Sequence record: SRR22947727_4435 | Strand: one strand, 5' to 3' | DNA length: 64,000 nucleotides | Part shown: positions 32,935 to 40,241 of the stretch, one piece after another | Layout: each line of letters begins with the position of its first letter | Position numbering within the stretch: position 1 is the stretch's first letter | Notes under the pieces: generated by a model | What the model was told of the DNA's origin: nothing | The model's input: only the letters and a program-made list of their open reading frames with translations | Database searches by the model: none | Translations under genes and position numbers: made by a program

Positions 32935-33012
32935 GGCAGGCGGTTGCTGTGACGCGTTAAGGCGGTAAGGCGTGAACGCGTAAGTGCATTGGTGCGTTCT
33001 TGGGTCAGTGCG

Positions 33013-33423
33013 TTAGGTCGGGAAGGCCTGACTGGCGACGCCCCACCGCACGGCGTCGCGGGCCGAGGCCTGCGCCCAGGCGATCGCGGTGGCGCGATCG
33101 GCTCCCTCGGTCACCGATGCGACATCGGCGTAGACGCCCACAAGTGTGTTACTCAGCGCCGCAAGTGCCGAGCGCGCGGTCTTCGGATTCGTGATCGGCG
33201 ATTCGGGTGTGAACCCCGGCGGCGTGGCAGGCACGTCGGAAGGATCCACGAGCACGGCGTTGGCCTGCAGGCGCGCGCGGTGCTCGGCGAGTTGATTGAC
33301 GGCTCTGCGTCGCCCGGCTCCGCGAAGAAAGGCACCGGCGAGCCCAGCAGCGAAGACGTAGTTCTGTTCGGTTTGGATCGCGCGGGTAATGGCGGCGATG
33401 GCGTCGGGTTGGGTGTAGGTCAC
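33013..33423 (-). CDS. DUF4439/ferritin-like protein
   Basis: Helical, E..H motif, ends AVRWG....FP; usual position opposite rimP. Confidence 0.7.
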   Translation of the reverse strand: MTYTQPDAIAAITRAIQTEQNYVFAAGLAGAFLRGAGRRRAVNQLAEHRARLQANAVLVDPSDVPATPPGFTPESPITNPKTARSALAALSNTLVGVYADVASVTEGADRATAIAWAQASARDAVRWGVASQAFPT

Positions 33424-33956
33424 GACCGACTCACCCCCGAGCGAATGTCTCGAAGCTCGGGCACGTGCGAACTCTCCGACGCCGCGATGAACGTGAACGC
33501 CCGCACCTGCTCGGCGGATTCGGATTGTTCAGCGGTCTGTGCGCGCTGCTCGGCAGCCCGGCGTTCACGAGAAATCAGGTTGGTGATCGCCTCGCGGGCG
33601 TTAGTGGCCTTGGGCGGTATGGGTGCGAGGTCGGTGAAGTCGGCCTCGGTGGCACCGAGCTCACGTGCGTGGGCCCGGTGCTGATCGGTGATGCCCGCGA
33701 GGCTACCGCGGAGTTCGGGGTAGATGGCGAGGGTTCCCTCGTAGGCACCGACAAGTGCGAGCTCGTCAAGGAGGGCTTCGCTCTTTTCCACCGTCGGAGA
33801 CGGGTCTATGTCGACGGCCTCCGGTGGCGGTTCGTCGCTCCCGCACGCGGCGAGAGCCACGGCGGTAGCGCCGAGTACCGGAGCGGCGATCGCTCCCAGC
33901 AATACCCGCCGCCGCTCAAGAGGTCGCGCGCCGATCGGTCCGCCGGGAATCTCCAC
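33420..33956 (-). CDS. Hypothetical Tat-type lipoprotein (conserved partner of DUF4439)
   Basis: RRRVLL signal, LAAC lipobox, H..H, IAASESSH; start uncertain. Confidence 0.65.
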   Translation of the reverse strand: MEIPGGPIGARPLERRRVLLGAIAAPVLGATAVALAACGSDEPPPEAVDIDPSPTVEKSEALLDELALVGAYEGTLAIYPELRGSLAGITDQHRAHARELGATEADFTDLAPIPPKATNAREAITNLISRERRAAEQRAQTAEQSESAEQVRAFTFIAASESSHVPELRDIRSGVSRS

Positions 33957-34047
33957 CGCGCAAGGATCCCACGGCGTCGCCCGGACGGTTACACTCCTGA
34001 TCACAATCGCATCAACAACAGGATCGTGCCCGAGGGACGGAGGGGCC

Positions 34048-34512
34048 ATGGCTGTGTCCATCGACACAGTGCGGAACATTGCCGCACCGATCGTCTCTGC
34101 CGCGAAACTCGACCTCGAAGACGTCACCGTTGGTCGTGTCGGCCGTCGAGACAAGGTGTGTGTGATCGTCGACGCCGATGGTGGCGTCGACCTGGACCTG
34201 ATCGCGAAGGTCTCCGGGGATATCTCCACCGCGTTGGATAGTCAATCTCAGATCGAGGATGCACCGTTCGTTCTGGAAGTGACCAGTCCGGGAGTCGATC
34301 GCCCGCTGACCGAGGCACGGCACTGGCGTCGCGCCCGTGACCGCCTCGTCGTTATGGACATGAACGATGGCGGCACTGTCAAAGGTCGTGTGGTCTCCAG
34401 TGACGATTGGTCGGCGACCGTTGACGTGTCAGGTCAGATGCAACAGATCCCTTACGACGATGTGTCCAAGGCCGTCGTGGAAATCGAATTCGATCGCAAG
34501 AAGGACACCTGA
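34048..34512 (+). CDS. rimP: Ribosome maturation factor RimP
   Basis: [34 protein letters not shown]. Confidence 0.95.
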
Positions 34513-35534
34513 TGGATATCGACGTCACAGCATTGAAGAGCCTGGTCCGCGAGAAGAACCTCTCGCTGGACCTGGTGGTGGAGACCATCGAAGCGGCACT
34601 GCTGGTTGCCTATCAGCGAACCGACGGGTCGGCCGAGACCGCGCGCGTCCAACTCGACCGCAAGTCCGGCCACGTGATCGTATGGGCGAGTGAGGTCAAC
34701 GACGAGGGTGAGGTGATCGGAGAATTCGATGACACCCCCGAAGGCTTCGGGCGCATCGCCGCCGCAACCGCTCGGCAGGTGCTGTTGTCCCGACTGCGCG
34801 AAGCCGAGGGTGAGGCCACCATGACCGAGTTCAGCGGGAGAGAAGGCGACCTGGTCTCTGGGGTTATTCAGCAAACGACCAACCCGCGGATGATCCGCGT
34901 GGATCTGGGGAAGCTCGAAGTGAATCTGCCACCGGAGGAACAAGCCCCCGGGGAGACCTACGAGCACGGTGCGCGCATCAAGGCACTGGTGACGGGTGTG
35001 CGCAGGGGCTTCAAAGGTCCGATCGTCACCGTGTCGCGAACACACCCGAACCTGGTGCGGGCGCTGTTCGCACTCGAGGTGCCCGAGATTGCGGATGGAA
35101 CCGTCGAGATCACGGCCATCGCTCGAGAGGCCGGGCATCGCAGCAAGATCGCTGTTCGCTCCAATGCCGCGGATGTCAACGGCAAGGGATCGTGCATCGG
35201 GCCACAGGGACAACGCGTTCGACACGTGATGACCGAGTTGAGTGGGGAGAAGATCGACATCGTCGATCACAGCGACGACCCCGCCGAGATGATCGCCCAC
35301 GCCCTCTCACCCGCGCGGGTCACCTCGGTCGAGATCGTGGACGCCAACGTCAAGGCGGCGCGAGTTCTCGTTCCGGACTATCAACTTTCCCTTGCGATCG
35401 GGCGTGAAGGTCAAAACGCTCGGCTGGCGGCGCGACTGACCGGATGGCGGATCGACATTCGCCCCGACGGTGGCCCCGGAGCGGATCCGGCCGGGGTTCG
35501 GGAAGATCCAGCTGCGGCCTCCGGGGGCGAATAG
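34512..35534 (+). CDS. nusA: Transcription factor NusA
   Basis: FGRIAA..ARQ, S1, [26 protein letters not shown]. Confidence 0.98.
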
Positions 35535-35536
35535 AC

Positions 35537-35821
35537 GTGGCGGGTTCGCCGCCAGAACCCAGCCGGCAGTGCATCGGGTGCCGAAGCCGAGCACCCCGGT
35601 CCTCGTTGGTCCGGCTGGTGGCCGATGACGGAGCCCCGGGCGGGTGCCGAGTGGATAGTAGGCGAAATCAGCCCGGGCGTGGGGCACACATCCACCCCCG
35701 GGAGGAGTGCATCGAGGAGGCGACGAAGCGTCGGGCGCTCCCGCGTGCCTTACGGGCCCTTCCCGGCTCAACTGTCGACATCTCGAAGGTGCATGCCGAG
35801 ATCCTCGGGACGAGGCTGTAG
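35537..35821 (+). CDS. ylxR: YlxR family RNA-binding protein
   Basis: PSRQCIGCR, LVRLV, PGRGAHIHP..C; lies between nusA and infB. Confidence 0.88.
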   Translation: MAGSPPEPSRQCIGCRSRAPRSSLVRLVADDGAPGGCRVDSRRNQPGRGAHIHPREECIEEATKRRALPRALRALPGSTVDISKVHAEILGTRL

Positions 35822-35873
35822 ATTCCTCCTCTGACAGCACCGTTGACGACGTCCACGAAGGAGTGGCTCGGAG

Positions 35874-35922
35874 ATGAACACCCAATGAGCACGCGAGCAT
35901 GAAGATGCAGCGTTCGATCTAG
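35874..35922 (+). other. Chain of three start/stop-overlapping micro-ORFs in the infB leader
   Basis: MNTQ* 35874-35888, MSTRA* 35885-35902, MKMQRSI* 35899-35922, each joined by ATGA; SD GAAGGAG at 35857-35863. Confidence 0.6.
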
Positions 35923-35958
35923 TCGTCCGGGTTACGCCCGGACCAAGACAGGAGAATC

Positions 35959-38733
35959 GTGTCCAAGGTTCGGGTCTATGAGCTCGCTCGAGAGCTCGGA
36001 GTCGAGAGCAAAGAAGTCCTTGCGAAATTGCAAGAGATGGGCGAATTCGTCCGCTCCGCCTCATCTACCATCGAGCCGCCGGTCGCCCGGCGCTTGATCG
36101 ATGCGATGCCTGCCGCCCCCGAGGGTGCGGCGGCCAAGAAGACCACCAAGAAGGCAGCGAAGAAAACTACCAAGAAGACGACCGCGGCAGCTGAAGAGTC
36201 TGAACCGTCGTCCGCAACCGAGGCTGCCGCCGAGGCACCGTCGGCCGGTGAAGCGCCAGCCCCTGCCGCACCGCCAGCTGCCACACCGCCCGCGGCGCCA
36301 GCTGCCACACCGCCCGAGACGCCACCGGCAAGTACGCCGGCAGCGCCCGCTGCGGGAGCAAAGCCGGCCCCACGTCCAGGAAACAATCCCTTCGGCACCA
36401 GCGGCACCTCTGCTCGACCGGGAGGGCCGCGTCCCGGTAACAACCCATACAGCTCTGGTTCGGGCATGGGTCGAGCGCCAGGCGTTCCCGGCGCGCCGCG
36501 CCCTAACCCATCGACGATGCCCAACCGTCCCACTCGCCCTGCAGGTCCTGGCGGCCCCGGTGGTCCTGGCGGCCCCGGTGGCCCGCGAGGGCGTGGTGGC
36601 CCTGGTGGCCCTGGTGGCCCTGGTGGTCCCGGCGGTCCCGGCGGCCCTGGCCGTGGTGGCTCCGGCGGCGGGCGTGACGATTTTCGAGGCCGTGGTGGTC
36701 CGGGCGGTCCTGGCGGTCCTGGTGGCCCTGGTGGTCCCGGTGGCCCTGGTGGTCCCGGCGGTCCTGGCGGGCGCGGTGGGTTCCGTACCGGTGGGCGTGG
36801 AAACACCGCCGGCGCTTTCGGCAAGCCGGGCGGTCGGCCGTCTCGAGGTCGAAAATCCAAGCGCGCCAAGCGTCAAGAGTTCGACAACATGGAAGCTCCG
36901 ACACTCGGCGGGGTGCGGCTGCCGCGGGGTACCGGTGAGACGGTCCGGCTCCCGCGCGGTGCGTCCCTGACCGATTTCGCTGAGAAGATCGACGCGTCAC
37001 CGGCTGATCTGGTCAAGGTCCTCATCGGTCTCGGCGAGATGGTGACCGCGACACAGTCGATCGACGATGACACCTTGAAGCTGTTGGGCACCGAGTTGAA
37101 TTTCGATGTTCAGGTCGTTTCGCCCGAGGACGAAGACCGCGAACTCCTAGAGTCCTTCGACCTCGACTTCGGAGAGGACGAGGGCGAGGCTGGCGATCTC
37201 GAGGCGCGATCGCCCGTGGTGACCGTGATGGGTCACGTCGACCACGGTAAGACCAAACTCCTCGACGCGATCCGCAAAACCAACGTGGTCAGCGGTGAAG
37301 CTGGGGGCATCACGCAGCACATCGGCGCGTACCAGGCGGTGGCGCACACCCCCGATGGCGAACGCACGTTGACGATCATCGACACACCGGGTCACGAGGC
37401 CTTCACGGCCATGCGTGCGCGAGGTGCCGAGGTGACAGACATCGCGGTCCTGGTTGTCGCTGCGGATGACGGAGTCAAGCCGCAGACCATCGAGGCCTTG
37501 AACCACGCCCAGGCGGCGCAGGTGCCGATCGTGGTGGCCGTGAACAAGGTTGACAAGGAAGGCGCTGACCCCACGAAGGTGCGCAGCCAGTTGACCGAAT
37601 ACGGGCTTGTTGCCGAGGACTTCGGCGGCGACACGATGTTCGTGGATGTCTCTGCGTTGCAGGGTATGGGAATCGAACCGCTCCTCGAAGCGGTGCTGCT
37701 GACCGCCGACGCGGCGTTGGAACTGCAGGCGAACCCCCATCAGAACGCCCAGGGTGTGGCGATCGAAGCGCACCTGGACCGCGGCCGTGGTCCGGTGGCC
37801 ACCGTTTTGGTCCAGCGCGGGACTCTGCGTCAGGGAGACTCGATCGTGGCGGGTGACGCGTTCGGTCGCGTTCGCGCGATGTTGGACGATGCCGGCAACG
37901 CCGTCGAGGAAGCTGGGCCCTCCGCGCCCGTCCAGGTTCTGGGCTTGACGTCGGTTCCCGGCGCGGGTGACTCGTTCCTGGTTGTGGAAGAGGACCGAAC
38001 GGCGCGCCATATCGCGCAAACGCGGCAGGCCCGGGAGCGGAACGCTCAACTGGCGAAGAGCCGTGTCAAGCGTTCGCTCGAGGACTTCCTGGAGTCCTTG
38101 GAGAAGGGAGAGGTGCAAGAACTCACCCTCATCATCAAGGGCGACGTGTCCGGATCGGTGGAGGCCCTCGAGGATGCGTTGATGAAGATCGACGTGGGCG
38201 AGGACGTCAATCTTCGGGTGATCCATCGAGGTGTCGGTGCGATCACGAAGAACGACGTGACGCTGGCGAGCGCATCCCAAGCGATCATCCTCGGTTTCAA
38301 CGTTCGACCCGAAGGAAAGGTCGCCGAGTTCGCGTCGACTGAAGGCGTCGACGTCCGGTACTACAGCGTGATCTACCAGGCGATCGACGAGATCGAGGCG
38401 GCACTGAAGGGCATGCTGAAGCCGGAGTTCGAGGAAGCACAACTCGGAACGGCAGAAGTGCGCGAGGTCTTCAAGTCCTCGAAGTTCGGCACGATCGCCG
38501 GTTGCCTCGTGCAATCCGGCGAGGTCAAGCGCAACGCGAAAGCTCGACTCATCCGTGACGGCGCTGTGGTGACAGACAACCTGTCCATCGCGGGCCTTCG
38601 GCGCTTCAAGGACGACGTCACCGAGGTGCGCGAGGGCTTCGAGTGCGGCATCAACCTCGGCTCATACCAGGACGTCAAGGTGGACGACGTCATCGAGACG
38701 TTCGAGATGCGAGAGAAGAAACGTCCGGCCTAA
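35959..38733 (+). CDS. infB: Translation initiation factor IF-2
   Basis: [47 protein letters not shown]. Confidence 0.99.
36544..36768 (+). repeat. 9-bp coding tandem repeats encoding (GPG)n in three blocks separated by RG-rich spacers
   Basis: GGY-CCN-GGY units; 5, 6 and 8 Pro-containing units. Confidence 0.9.
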
Positions 38734-38788
38734 TCAGCCCATCGAATGCATCGCGTAGTGACACGGCACGAAAGGTCAGGAGAAGGAC

Positions 38789-39223
38789 ATGGCGAATGTT
38801 GCACGGCAACGTCGACTGGCCGACCGGATCCGACACATCGTGGCCGACATGCTCGAACTGCGAATCAAGGATCCGCGGCTGGGGTTCGTCACGATTACCG
38901 ATGTTCGGGTGACGCCTGATCTTCGGGAAGCCTCGATCTTCTACACGGTCTACGGCGACGTAGAAGAGCAGGAAGAAAGCGCGCGAGCCCTGGCCTCTGC
39001 CACCGGCGTTATTCGAAGCGAAGTGGGTAAGCAAACCGGCATCAAGTTCACGCCGTCGCTGGAGTTCATTCCGGACGCAGTTCCGGAGAACGCCCGACAC
39101 GTGGAAGACCTGCTCGCCCAAGCGGCCGAGGCGGACGCCCAGGTCCACGAGCAGGCAGTGGGCGCCACCTATGCGGGGGAGGCCGACCCGTACCGGCATC
39201 CCCGAGAAGACGGCGACGAGTAG
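38789..39223 (+). CDS. rbfA: Ribosome-binding factor A
   Basis: IKDPRLGFVTITDVRVT.DL, FTPSLEF..D. Confidence 0.97.
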   Translation: MANVARQRRLADRIRHIVADMLELRIKDPRLGFVTITDVRVTPDLREASIFYTVYGDVEEQEESARALASATGVIRSEVGKQTGIKFTPSLEFIPDAVPENARHVEDLLAQAAEADAQVHEQAVGATYAGEADPYRHPREDGDE

Positions 39224-39233
39224 CGGACGACAC

Positions 39234-40241
39234 GTGGGGCGAGGATCACGTCGTTCGAAGGACGATCCGTCCGTCGCGGGCGTGCTGTGTGTGGACAAGC
39301 CGTCTGGGCTGACCAGCCACGATGTTGTCGATCGAGTTCGACGACGTCTCGGCGTGCGGCGCGTCGGTCACGCCGGGACCCTCGACCCGATGGCCACCGG
39401 AGTCCTCATCATTGGCGTGGGGTCCACTACTCGGTTGTTGGGGATCATCACAGGGCACGACAAGGAATACACGGCAACTATCCGACTGGGTGCATCGACA
39501 ACGACCGACGATCGAGAAGGAGACGTGATCGCGGAGGCGACCACTGGGGACATCCAGCATGTCACCGACGCGTCTATCACCGAAGCCGTCACACACTTCA
39601 CGGGTGCCCTGGAGCAGCGACCGAGTGCGGTGAGCGCGGTCAAGGTGGACGGCAAACGCGCGTATCAGCGGGTGCGGGATGGGGAAGAGGTCGAACTTCC
39701 GGCCAGGGCCGTCACCGTCGAGGAGTTCACGATCCTCGATATTCGTCGCGGCGAAGCTGCTACCGACGCTGCTTCCGACGGTGCTCGTTACACAGCGATC
39801 GATGTCGATGTGCGCGTTCGATGCTCGGCTGGAACCTACATCCGCTCACTCGCCCGCGATGTCGGCGAAGAACTTCGTGTGGGCGGTCACCTCACCGCAC
39901 TGCGACGAACGCGGTCGGGGACAGTCGACGTTACCGAGTGCGTCGACCTCGACGGCGCTGATCTCGAGCACTTGACCGCGCCGGGGGTATTCACGCGGCG
40001 GCACCTGCCGGCGGTGGATCTCATCGATGAGCACGTTGTCCGCGTCCGGAACGGCGTGCGCGTAGGTATCGACGTGCCCGAGGCATCGACGGTCGCGCTC
40101 ATCGGCCCGGGGGAGGACCTCGTGGCTGTTGTGGACGGGACGGCCAGCGGTGATCAGTACTCCATCACCGCGGTGTTTCCGGCTATCCCGCCTCGGGCTG
40201 TGGAGACGACGTCAGAGTCTCGCGGGGCAGACCACGAGTGA
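39234..40241 (+). CDS. truB: tRNA pseudouridine(55) synthase
   Basis: DKPSGLTSHD, GHAGTLDPMATG, SAVKVDGKRAY, CSAGTYIRSLARD; start approximate. Confidence 0.95.
   Translation: MGRGSRRSKDDPSVAGVLCVDKPSGLTSHDVVDRVRRRLGVRRVGHAGTLDPMATGVLIIGVGSTTRLLGIITGHDKEYTATIRLGASTTTDDREGDVIAEATTGDIQHVTDASITEAVTHFTGALEQRPSAVSAVKVDGKRAYQRVRDGEEVELPARAVTVEEFTILDIRRGEAATDAASDGARYTAIDVDVRVRCSAGTYIRSLARDVGEELRVGGHLTALRRTRSGTVDVTECVDLDGADLEHLTAPGVFTRRHLPAVDLIDEHVVRVRNGVRVGIDVPEASTVALIGPGEDLVAVVDGTASGDQYSITAVFPAIPPRAVETTSESRGADHE

Follow-up and report, generated by a model that had tools for sequence, protein, structure and literature searches.

The 64,000-nt stretch of marine actinobacterial DNA analysed here (sequence record SRR22947727_4435, the window in what follows) carries on its plus strand ylxR (35537..35821) and, downstream of it, infB (35959..38733), the gene for initiation factor IF2, which opens with GTG at 35959. 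Both assignments had been made from the letters alone and are borne out by domain searches, in which the ylxR translation matches Pfam YlxR/DUF448 (E 2.5e-19) and the infB product comprises IF2_N, GTP_EFTU and IF-2 domains. Between the TAG stop of ylxR and infB lie three very short upstream open reading frames (uORFs), all on the same strand, each in a different frame and each met again in relatives. uORF1 (ATG AAC ACC CAA TGA, MNTQ*; four codons, 35874..35888) begins 52 nt after the ylxR stop and 10 nt after a Shine-Dalgarno (SD) motif, GAAGGAG (35857..35863). Its stop overlaps the start of uORF2 (ATG AGC ACG CGA GCA TGA, MSTRA*; 35885..35902) as ATGA, and the uORF2 stop overlaps the start of uORF3 (ATG AAG ATG CAG CGT TCG ATC TAG, MKMQRSI*; 35899..35922) in the same manner, neither uORF2 nor uORF3 having an SD of its own. 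Two nucleotides separate the uORF3 stop from a hairpin of GTCCGGG (35925-35931) and CCCGGAC (35937-35943), beyond which come the SD core of infB, GGAG (35951..35954), evident from its letters and its predicted anti-SD duplex, and the GTG. Each element that a sequence-only reading had listed - the first SD, three ATGA-coupled micro-ORFs stepping through three frames, the hairpin and the SD and GTG of infB - is thus found where it had been placed.

An Rfam 15 scan of 33000-40000 at E up to 1 gave no match in the spacer (35822-35958), the sole match in that interval being a sub-threshold RT-19 inside infB (36802-36868). Between 33500 and 39500, a promoter scan, which is uninformative for non-sigma-70 promoters, returned no promoter-like site, and a terminator scan returned five terminator-like sites, none of them in the ylxR-infB spacer. 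Contigs from four metatranscriptome runs (three studies) reach from ylxR across the spacer into infB, and their letters at 35822-35958 are invariant; contigs of this kind cannot prove transcription, ribosomes, RNA ends or strand, DNA possibly being present in the libraries, and the leader as a transcribed RNA is not contradicted by them.

The sequence-only reading had called the chain unexpected, and this holds up in part. There is one chain of at least three ATGA-linked ORFs (at most 8 codons each) on the two strands of the 64-kb window, to be compared with a mean of 0.085 in 200 dinucleotide-preserving shuffles, 17 of which contained one. Taken alone, the chain in this window is only mildly unusual and weak evidence; it is its conservation in 86 of 89 distinct class-level loci, not single-window statistics, that argues for its reality. 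A pattern search for other relays in five genomes gave 19-38 raw matches each, and in the two whose matches were parsed by hand with errors possible (G001, 26; G203, 19; G006, G152 and G145 being left out) the infB chain was the sole intergenic one. The frame-consistent chains away from infB, two in G001 and one in G203, overlap opposite-strand open frames of at least 80 codons and were taken as chance. Also discarded was L158, a locus labelled as an Anaerolineae MAG, where the pattern match proved to be a chance one and no infB leader.

Similar text before infB had been suspected in other actinobacteria, along with the proposal that aligned ylxR-infB spacers be compared for overlaps that are kept as peptides vary, and the relatives bear out both. 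Among 89 distinct infB leaders from class-level loci, which were sampled by protein and not by motif, 86 contain the canonical three-ORF chain (4, 5 and 6-7 codons), and the three exceptions (L058, L077, L084) are variants with chained ORFs whose last stop falls at or inside the first arm of the hairpin. In a second order of large-genome actinobacteria, which is presumed to be Mycobacteriales-like from its apparently mycobacterial IF2 N-terminus, the chain occurs in 29/29 loci, 24 of these from genomes new to the sample; it is also present in 78 named loci (Streptomyces, Nonomuraea and others), and in 0 of 16 sampled loci belonging to other classes of the phylum. The element is common to lineages of marine, freshwater-type, soil and host-associated kinds, and infB itself starts with GTG in 87/89 class loci and in all 29 of the second order.

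Within the 86 canonical loci it is the plan of the ORFs that stays constant. uORF1 has four codons in 70 loci and a TGA stop in 84, uORF2 five codons in 76 and uORF3 six or seven in 76, the last of these ending in TAG (34), TAA (32) or TGA (20). Their 172 junctions consist of 163 ATG, 5 GTG and 1 TTG overlaps of 4 nt plus 3 ATG overlaps of 1 nt, so that GTGA and TAATG stand in for ATGA in some loci. Adjacent RTGA motifs lie 2 mod 3 apart in 172 of 185 cases, and a stop within 8 codons of the third ATG is found in frame 0 in 86/86 loci and in frame +2 in 3/86. Two individual comparisons follow the same rule: L096 differs from L079 by a 3-nt insertion that keeps the frame, and L074, from a low-GC lineage, has rewritten the sequence and kept the ORF plan. 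The peptides themselves vary, with 19 distinct ones among 70 uORF1, 44 among 76 uORF2 and, for the 76 uORF3 of 6-7 codons, 35 among 47 and 17 among 29, and no codon-position periodicity is seen in the mini-ORFs. Judged by this alignment, selection is on ORF status (starts, stops and frame) and not on peptide sequence; the mini-ORFs are presumed to be translated. The three units resemble each other beyond ATGA, sequence logos giving the consensus cgATGAGCAc, and CGA is the codon immediately before the junction stop in 56/86 loci for uORF1 and in 43/86 for uORF2.

Signals for ribosome loading are distributed unevenly along the leader. Predicted anti-SD duplexes before uORF1 have a median of -6.1 kcal/mol (-6 or lower in 54/86 loci), and those before infB reach -6 or lower in 86/86; before uORF2 they are weaker than -3.5 kcal/mol in 67/86 (-6 or lower in 12/86), and before uORF3 an SD is predicted in 0/86. 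With SDs predicted for uORF1 and infB and rare or absent between them, the starts of uORF2 and uORF3 would appear to rely on restarting. This would be in keeping with the strict coupling via termination-reinitiation that is described for ATGA overlaps (Huber et al. 2019, PMC6728339).

What the sequence-only reading had taken for a hairpin after the relay is indeed present and turns out to be more than a simple hairpin, as its 3' arm has a second pairing partner in infB codons 3-6, which offers a concrete route from relay to infB. We refer to GTCCGGG (35925..35931), its 5' arm, as arm 1; arm 2, CCCGGACC (35937..35944), is the partner of either arm 1 or arm 3, GGTTCGGG (35967..35974), a segment near-identical in sequence to arm 1 that is complementary to arm 2 and extends from the end of infB codon 3 into the beginning of codon 6 (AAG GTT CGG GTC). 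Pairing and covariation speak for both helices. For arm1:arm2, paired cells make up 83.1%, as compared to at most 50.6% in slid controls, with changes on both sides in 7/7 pairs. For arm2:arm3 the figures are 92.9% and at most 57.3%, and RNAalifold, unprompted, selects this helix. Its pair of alignment columns 93 and 142 is CG in 64, GC in 5, AU in 2, UA in 1, UG in 2 and GU in 1, whereby the wobble base of infB codon 5 covaries with arm 2 through 9 double changes, and leader pairing with codons 3-6 accounts for frozen synonymous sites at the start of infB. On these comparative data, arm 2 is predicted to have two mutually exclusive partners, which makes the leader a three-arm switch that is new here. 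A single-sequence fold of 35815-35990 (z = -1.72; 9/200 shuffles fold as well) is uninformative alone. In the second order arm 1 is SD-like (GAGGUCG), arm 2 ends in an anti-SD-like GGCCUC, and predicted folds alternate between the two forms among close relatives. A fourth arm (GACCGTC-like, upstream of the first SD), considered as pairing just after the last stop and enclosing the relay, was dropped, its duplexes averaging -15.0 kcal/mol with their own sequence, little better than the -13.8 across sequences, in the 32 loci with enough upstream sequence.

How the switch is placed with respect to the relay is conserved as well. The first paired base of the hairpin follows the uORF3 stop by 0-4 nt in 84/86 loci, and the segment from stop to SD has a median predicted dG of -16.5 kcal/mol. 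Since a terminating ribosome reaches about 11-15 nt past its P site, one standing at the uORF3 stop is predicted to overlap arm 1.

Taken together, our findings suggest that a conserved cis-regulatory leader occupies the ylxR-infB spacer and acts as a reinitiation-operated translational attenuator, that is, an RNA switch, of infB, a reading to which we give a probability of roughly 45%. In such a scheme ribosomes would load at the SD of the four-codon uORF1 and pass onwards only by two restarts at AUGA stop/start overlaps whose next start lacks an SD (termination-reinitiation), so the uORF3 stop would be reached only by those that clear both junctions. Because this stop abuts the arm1:arm2 hairpin, a ribosome terminating there would have to melt arm 1, and arm 2, once free, could pair with arm 3 in infB codons 3-6, a helix that would close the infB start region with its SD and GUG left in the loop. 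The more ribosomes complete the relay, the more of the leader would adopt this closed form and the less IF2 would be made; completion of the relay would thus repress infB, and failure to restart would leave the arm1:arm2 hairpin intact and the infB start open.

Folding computations add little to the sign of this effect. At equilibrium and with no ribosome, infB codons 2-6 are mostly paired (mean unpaired probability 0.33), and masking a ribosome at the uORF3 stop takes the mean to 0.30, with lower values in 35, higher in 12 and unchanged ones in 39 of the 86 loci. The predicted masking effect is modest, being small and mixed, and the sign of regulation we propose comes from attenuator logic, not from the computation. 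In the variant L084 the last ORF includes arm 1 and has its stop in the hairpin loop, 27 nt upstream of the GTG. A ribosome that terminates there would shield some of arm 2 as well; for this locus activation fits better than repression.

It is here that positive translational coupling has to be weighed, according to which arm 2:arm 3 keeps infB closed in the default state and relay ribosomes either open its start or restart at the GUG 33-52 nt downstream, so that IF2 would track upstream translation and the spacer would be shielded from Rho and RNases. Equilibrium folds that place arm 2:arm 3 near the ground state would agree with this, as would L084, where a ribosome ending inside the hairpin would hold arm 2 open, and so would work on M. 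tuberculosis that ties NUGA-linked uORFs to protection against premature termination (preprint 10.1101/2022.06.01.494293). In 84/86 loci, however, the last stop lies before arm 1 and not before arm 2, and a terminating ribosome would therefore cover the anti-sequestering arm and favour closure. A strong SD of its own precedes infB in 86/86 loci, which also counts against such coupling, and coupling leaves the conservation of arm 1 and its covariation with arm 2 unexplained. Moreover, stable structures directly after stop codons are described to govern re-initiation and to be enriched where re-initiation is deleterious, insulating translation (Chemla et al. 2020, PMC7518266), which also speaks against this reading. 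To our minds positive coupling is unlikely.

Decidedly more doubtful is a sensor of ribosome stress or antibiotics, similar to erm or whiB7 leaders, in which drugs or starvation would stall ribosomes on the tiny ORFs or their stops, and the place of the stall would set the switch and raise IF2 under stress. Translational attenuators are classically built from very short leader ORFs that lead into alternative hairpins, and the CGA codons preceding so many of the stops could be slow. The WhiB7 regulon touches the locus. For Mycobacterium abscessus, PMC10727445 lists a WhiB7 ChIP peak upstream of infB, a sign that infB is under additional or alternative control. SCO5707, grouped by homology with rimP, infB, rbfA and truB, is described among WblC-dependent changes in S. 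coelicolor as becoming enriched in ribosome fractions upon tetracycline treatment (PMC7157823). Against this, drug-dependent arrest usually needs specific peptide motifs, yet here the peptides are unconserved and aperiodic; two conserved restart junctions would be superfluous for a stalling sensor, and the element is shared by lineages as different in habitat as marine, freshwater-type, soil and host-associated ones. Highly improbable is an untranslated RNA element whose (C)GAUGAGC repeats are sites or modules for a protein (e.g. YlxR or a ribosomal protein) and only incidentally look like ORFs: likeness of the three units, missing codon periodicity and a neighbour gene of RNA-binding type would suit it, but frame-keeping unit spacing, a third unit always closed in frame by any of the three stops, indels in threes, GTGA or TAATG in place of ATGA, the rewritten low-GC leader and the absence of an Rfam family match to the spacer at E up to 1 all oppose it.

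In ermC/ermB-type and, by their logic, trp-type leaders, accessibility of the downstream start region depends on where the leader ribosome stands. As in ermC and ermB, a short leader ORF with an SD precedes helices that exclude one another in the infB leader, which differs from them in that it has no conserved arrest peptide and chains three mini-ORFs by stop/start overlaps; here restarting, not decoding, would limit the ribosomes, and completion of the leader is predicted to close the start. In GCN4 mRNA, how often ribosomes reinitiate once they have translated a short ORF serves as a measure of available initiator tRNA and initiation factors. Control of the GCN4/ATF4 type by several short uORFs (reviewed in PMC5972666) resembles the infB relay, with its three ORFs of 4, 5 and 6-7 codons, in having very short uORFs in series ahead of a gene that regulates translation or metabolism. 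It operates, however, by eukaryotic scanning over tens to hundreds of nt, as opposed to 4-nt overlaps and a bacterial ribosome. The infB relay would further differ by being read out by an RNA switch and by regulating the gene for an initiation factor itself. Among bacterial translation factors, infC (IF3, AUU start) and prfB (RF2, in-frame UGA and +1 frameshift) are autoregulated genes. With them the infB leader would have in common that a special signal in the mRNA of a factor probes the activity of that same factor. To our knowledge infB has no such autoregulatory device, and our literature search found no feedback mechanism for IF2 synthesis. The control described for infB in the sources we found comprises cold-stress induction in E. 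coli (PMC6511841) and, for the nusA-infB operon, NusA-dependent transcriptional control, cited in PMC2965389.

Termination-reinitiation (TeRe) gene overlaps (PMC6728339) likewise have 4-nt or 1-nt overlaps and downstream starts that often lack an SD and depend on the upstream gene; in known examples the partners are real protein genes, coupled for the sake of stoichiometry, unlike the infB units, which are 4-7 codons long, specify unconserved peptides and stand in series before a switch. With the ribosome termination structure (RTS) of PMC7518266 the leader shares a stable hairpin immediately after a stop; unlike in the RTS, the 3' arm of this hairpin has a second conserved partner in the first infB codons, which makes it a switch, not only an insulator. 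From the same phylum, translated NUGA-linked uORFs of M. tuberculosis (10.1101/2022.06.01.494293; PMC11260477) are alike in their overlaps and in coupling to downstream ORFs. The main texts searched, whose supplementary tables may list these uORFs, contain no mention of infB, IF2 or Rv2839c and describe neither a three-step chain nor an arm 2:arm 3 pairing. Our literature search likewise yielded no description of an infB mini-ORF relay switch.

What may be sensed by such an attenuator is a separate matter, and the availability of IF2 or fMet-tRNA, as originally put forward, is to us the most attractive inference. A restart without SD can be envisaged as a race between recruitment of IF2 with fMet-tRNA, which would be the limiting factor, and loss of the mRNA; therefore the relay would report initiation capacity and exert negative feedback on IF2, two serial junctions sharpening the response. 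IF2 may thus possibly autoregulate infB through the leader. This requires restarting to be more sensitive to IF2 than the IF2-dependent initiation of infB itself, for only then would feedback result. IF1 and IF2 are reported to promote drop-off of very short peptidyl-tRNAs, which would invert the IF2 dependence. We advance it tentatively, and with more doubt than belief, that the leader is both IF2's missing autoregulatory device and a bacterial counterpart of GCN4, in which two SD-less junctions gauge active IF2 and fMet-tRNA and the three-arm switch represses infB. Under this reading GTP versus (p)ppGpp, or else formylation, might modulate how much IF2 with fMet-tRNA is available, and the device would be conserved across the sampled class Actinomycetes, including Streptomyces and the presumed Mycobacteriales-like order.

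The infB-leader element merits annotation, spacers of this kind having so far been treated as empty. If the proposed mechanism is true, it would be the first case of bacterial serial reinitiation used as a sensor, and the element could serve as a compact, portable in vivo reporter of initiation capacity; it would also be present in the large-genome actinobacterial order whose IF2 N-terminus appears mycobacteria-like. In the sampled relatives of the class, the near-universal leader before infB looks like an undescribed feedback switch on translation-initiation capacity. IF2 is essential, and, if the leader is a feedback device, an essential gene of the main antibiotic producers would be preceded by a regulatory element found class-wide.

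All elements that the sequence-only reading had placed between ylxR and infB, the gene for translation initiation factor IF2, are present and identical in sequence. Downstream of ylxR (YlxR/DUF448; 35537-35821) lie a Shine-Dalgarno (SD) sequence, GAAGGAG (35857-35863), and a relay of three mini-ORFs, each start overlapping the preceding stop: uORF1 (ATG AAC ACC CAA TGA, 35874-35888), uORF2 (ATG AGC ACG CGA GCA TGA, 35885-35902) and uORF3 (ATG AAG ATG CAG CGT TCG ATC TAG, 35899-35922). A hairpin follows, whose strands, arm 1 (GTCCGGG, 35925-35931) and arm 2 (CCCGGAC, 35937-35943; in full CCCGGACC, 35937-35944), precede the infB SD core (GGAG, 35951-35954) and infB itself (35959-38733, GTG start at 35959). 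A search of both strands of the window (63.8% G+C) gives a single chain of three ATGA-linked ORFs, each of at most 8 codons, against a mean of 0.085 in its dinucleotide shuffles; taken alone it is only suggestive, because such a chain arises in 17 of 200 shuffles. In two hand-parsed genomes the infB relay is the sole frame-consistent chain in intergenic DNA, and three other frame-consistent chains there were rejected as overlapping long open frames (≥80 codons) on the opposite strand.

Relatives were chosen by protein similarity, not by motif. A ylxR query of 31 relatives matched 26 genomes and gave 26 loci, three of which end before infB (23 used), while IF2 residues 1-60, queried against 301 genomes of the class (Actinomycetes), matched 282, the best 30 loci minus two repeat genomes leaving 28. 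Twenty regions, one per additional family, were hand-chosen from the IF2-query places before their sequence was known; ten genomes whose families match IF2 weakly contributed 10 infB loci, two paralogue loci being left out; and a phylum sample (118 of 151 genomes matched) added 8 same-class loci and 19 from other classes, 16 of which were analysed after leaving out three from genomes flagged unpublished. For a second, Mycobacteriales-like order, so named from its IF2 N-terminus, 59 of 61 genomes matched, and 30 of their loci minus one flagged unpublished gave 29, five of them from genomes already sampled. The tallies 282/301, 118/151 and 59/61 include genomes flagged unpublished; all other results are without them.

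Among 89 distinct class-level loci (identical sequences removed), the canonical chain lies no more than 135 nt from infB in 86: 23/23 from the ylxR query, 28/28 from the IF2 query, 19/20 from the further families, 8/10 from those with weak IF2 matches and 8/8 from the phylum sample. The other three vary this plan: in L058 an ATG ORF is joined at an overlapping GTGA to one of 23 codons that terminates just before the hairpin, L077 has its three-ORF chain at -153 to -116 plus an additional 23-codon ORF stopping just before arm 1, and in L084 the second of two longer ORFs stops inside the hairpin loop. The second order, where IF2 starts VAGKARVHELAKELGV, has the chain in 29/29 analysed loci, the first junction often being GTGA. 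In the 16 loci from the phylum's other classes, chains reach two ORFs at most. Scanning 185,579 species genomes for the pattern returned at least 120 matching stretches, and 78 among the 80 loci listed directly precede an IF2 N-terminus; of the remainder, L158 is a chance match and L169 is cut by the locus end. Named carriers among the matches listed are Streptomyces (most), Kitasatospora, Streptacidiphilus, Actinomadura, Nonomuraea, Streptosporangium, Microbispora, Planotetraspora, Kineococcus and MAGs labelled Acidothermaceae and Micrococcales. One class-level locus, L092 (G450:C664), is a 1.7-kb contig with a VAGKARVHEL-type infB start and the leader, in a MAG that is placed in a different class of the phylum and has a second, weaker IF2_N match elsewhere; it is probably a contaminant contig, and without it the chain is found in 85/88. 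In large genomes of family f56 (L082, L083 of G152), IF2_N-like matches also occur at two or three places other than infB, none with a relay upstream.

As the sequence-only reading had predicted, aligning the spacers shows the overlaps kept (172 junctions in 86 loci) while the peptides are diverse. Lengths are nearly fixed, with four codons for uORF1 in 70/86 loci, five for uORF2 in 76/86 and six to seven for uORF3 in 76/86. The junctions comprise 163 ATG with 4-nt overlap, five GTG and one TTG likewise, and three ATG with 1-nt overlap. The first two stops are TGA since the overlap demands it; the third varies (TAG 34, TAA 32, TGA 20). The distance between adjacent RTGA motifs is 2 mod 3 in 172/185 cases, and a stop within 8 codons of the third ATG occurs in frame 0 in 86/86 loci and in frame +2 in 3/86, frame +1 being trivially closed by the TGA of ATGA itself. 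Frame survives a 3-nt insertion between two close relatives (VKSR* vs VKSRR*), and the low-GC lineage L074 has its letters rewritten and the plan retained (MKQK*, MSSFTS*, MRFDN*). Because distinct peptides are many (19 among 70 four-codon uORF1, 44 among 76 five-codon uORF2, 35/47 and 17/29 for uORF3) and variability shows no codon-position periodicity across the mini-ORFs, selection appears to act on starts, stops and frame, that is on the act of translation, and not on the products. Predicted anti-SD pairing has a median of -6.1 kcal/mol for uORF1 and reaches -6 or lower for infB in 86/86 loci, whereas an SD is predicted before uORF2 in 12/86 and before uORF3 in 0/86; this pattern is the signature of termination-reinitiation (PMC6728339).

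The final sense codon before the junctions (35883-35888 and 35897-35902 in the window, and in related loci) is CGA for 56/86 uORF1 and 43/86 uORF2, where any NNA would serve. All three units share the consensus cgATGAGCAc and look as though produced by triplication. The infB start (35959-35961) is GTG in 87/89 class-level and 29/29 second-order loci, a uniformity that seems to exceed expectation for a high-GC genome, and GTG may be part of the control logic.

The hairpin begins 0-4 nt past the last stop in 84/86 loci, so arm 1 must already be open when a ribosome has that stop in its A site. The sequence of arm 1 is nearly repeated in arm 3, which runs from the end of codon 3 into the start of codon 6 of infB (GTCCGGG vs GGTTCGGG in the window), and arm 2 can pair with either. 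Both helices were tested on an alignment (A1) of 89 loci. For arm 2:arm 3, 92.9% of cells are paired vs at most 57.3% with the partner slid, and an independent RNAalifold run on A1 returned this helix; its second pair (CG 64, GC 5, AU 2, UA 1, UG 2, GU 1; 13 cells unpaired) compensates, such that the arm 2 base matches the synonymous wobble position of codon 5 in infB (CGG/CGC/CGA/CGT), in several separate families (L062, L077, L078, L084, L088 and others). For arm 1:arm 2 the values are 83.1% vs at most 50.6%, with double changes in 7/7 pairs (38 cells in total). Kinship alone, without structure, can exceed the pair counts in shuffle controls; the slid controls and specific compensations are the stronger evidence. 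The conserved helices are mutually exclusive; one of them has codons 3-6 as pairing partner and encloses the infB SD and GTG. The second order follows the same logic with a different sequence: its arm 1 resembles an SD (GAGGUCG...), its arm 2 has an end resembling an anti-SD (...GGCCUC) and is able to pair with the SD, GUG and first codons, and close relatives alternate between both forms in their predicted minimum-energy folds.

Smaller structures occur in the window's genus. A predicted hairpin, GCAUGAAGAUGC (35895-35906), holds the uORF3 start and was seen in no other family; at 35947-35964, within the arm 2:arm 3 loop, UGUC at the start codon (GUG UCC) can form a mini-hairpin with GACA just 5' of the infB SD, a lineage-specific feature since GUG is followed by GCN in most families. 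The spacer matched no Rfam family, and scanning it for promoter-like and terminator-like sites gave none; a sub-threshold RT-19 match inside infB (36802-36868; 22.9 bits vs a gathering score of 78.3, E 0.34) is most likely chance. Marine metatranscriptome and metagenome runs of several studies contain the window sequence, and the nearest among the genomes searched is ~2 Mb. Contigs from RNA libraries of three marine studies span ylxR, spacer and infB without a variant letter in 35822-35958, which is compatible with, though no proof of, co-transcription. Marine strains in these contigs have in-frame indels in the Pro/Gly/Ala-rich IF2 linker (36182-36600; +18 and +24 bases at 36182 and 36271, -18 and -9 at 36544 and 36594) and a spacer identical to the window's.

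To our minds, ribosomes completing the relay would melt arm 1:arm 2 and let arm 2 close on the infB start, while those failing to restart would leave the hairpin intact and infB open. Restarting would be the step tested, and since the regulated gene is infB, IF2 with fMet-tRNA is the natural candidate for the limiting factor, which would give negative feedback, steepened by two junctions in series. We hold this repression and feedback model, as a whole, tentatively, at a probability of roughly 0.45. Against repression, equilibrium folding has infB codons 2-6 already paired without a ribosome, and masking a ribosome in silico shifts the mean unpaired probability little (0.33 to 0.30), with mixed directions across loci; against feedback, infB's own start needs IF2 too, and IF1 and IF2 are reported to promote drop-off of very short peptidyl-tRNAs. 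A relay positively coupled to infB, which L084 fits better than repression, is nonetheless unlikely. That the leader senses stress or an antibiotic strikes us as improbable, and an untranslated motif, set against the conserved starts, stops and frame, is more improbable still.

Literature searches with few subscription journals in their scope, extended to passages of PMC7157823, PMC10727445, PMC9094748, PMC2965389, PMC3716926, PMC5972666 and preprint 10.1101/2022.06.01.494293, turned up neither uORFs nor a switch described ahead of actinobacterial infB; a data table may already list these uORFs. The building blocks (termination-reinitiation at ATGA, hairpins after stop codons, leader-ORF attenuation) are known, and the logic is shared with classical attenuators, the difference here being that restarting would be the tested step. 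What is new, by the literature searched, is that restart junctions are chained and lead into a switch at the gene for an initiation factor.
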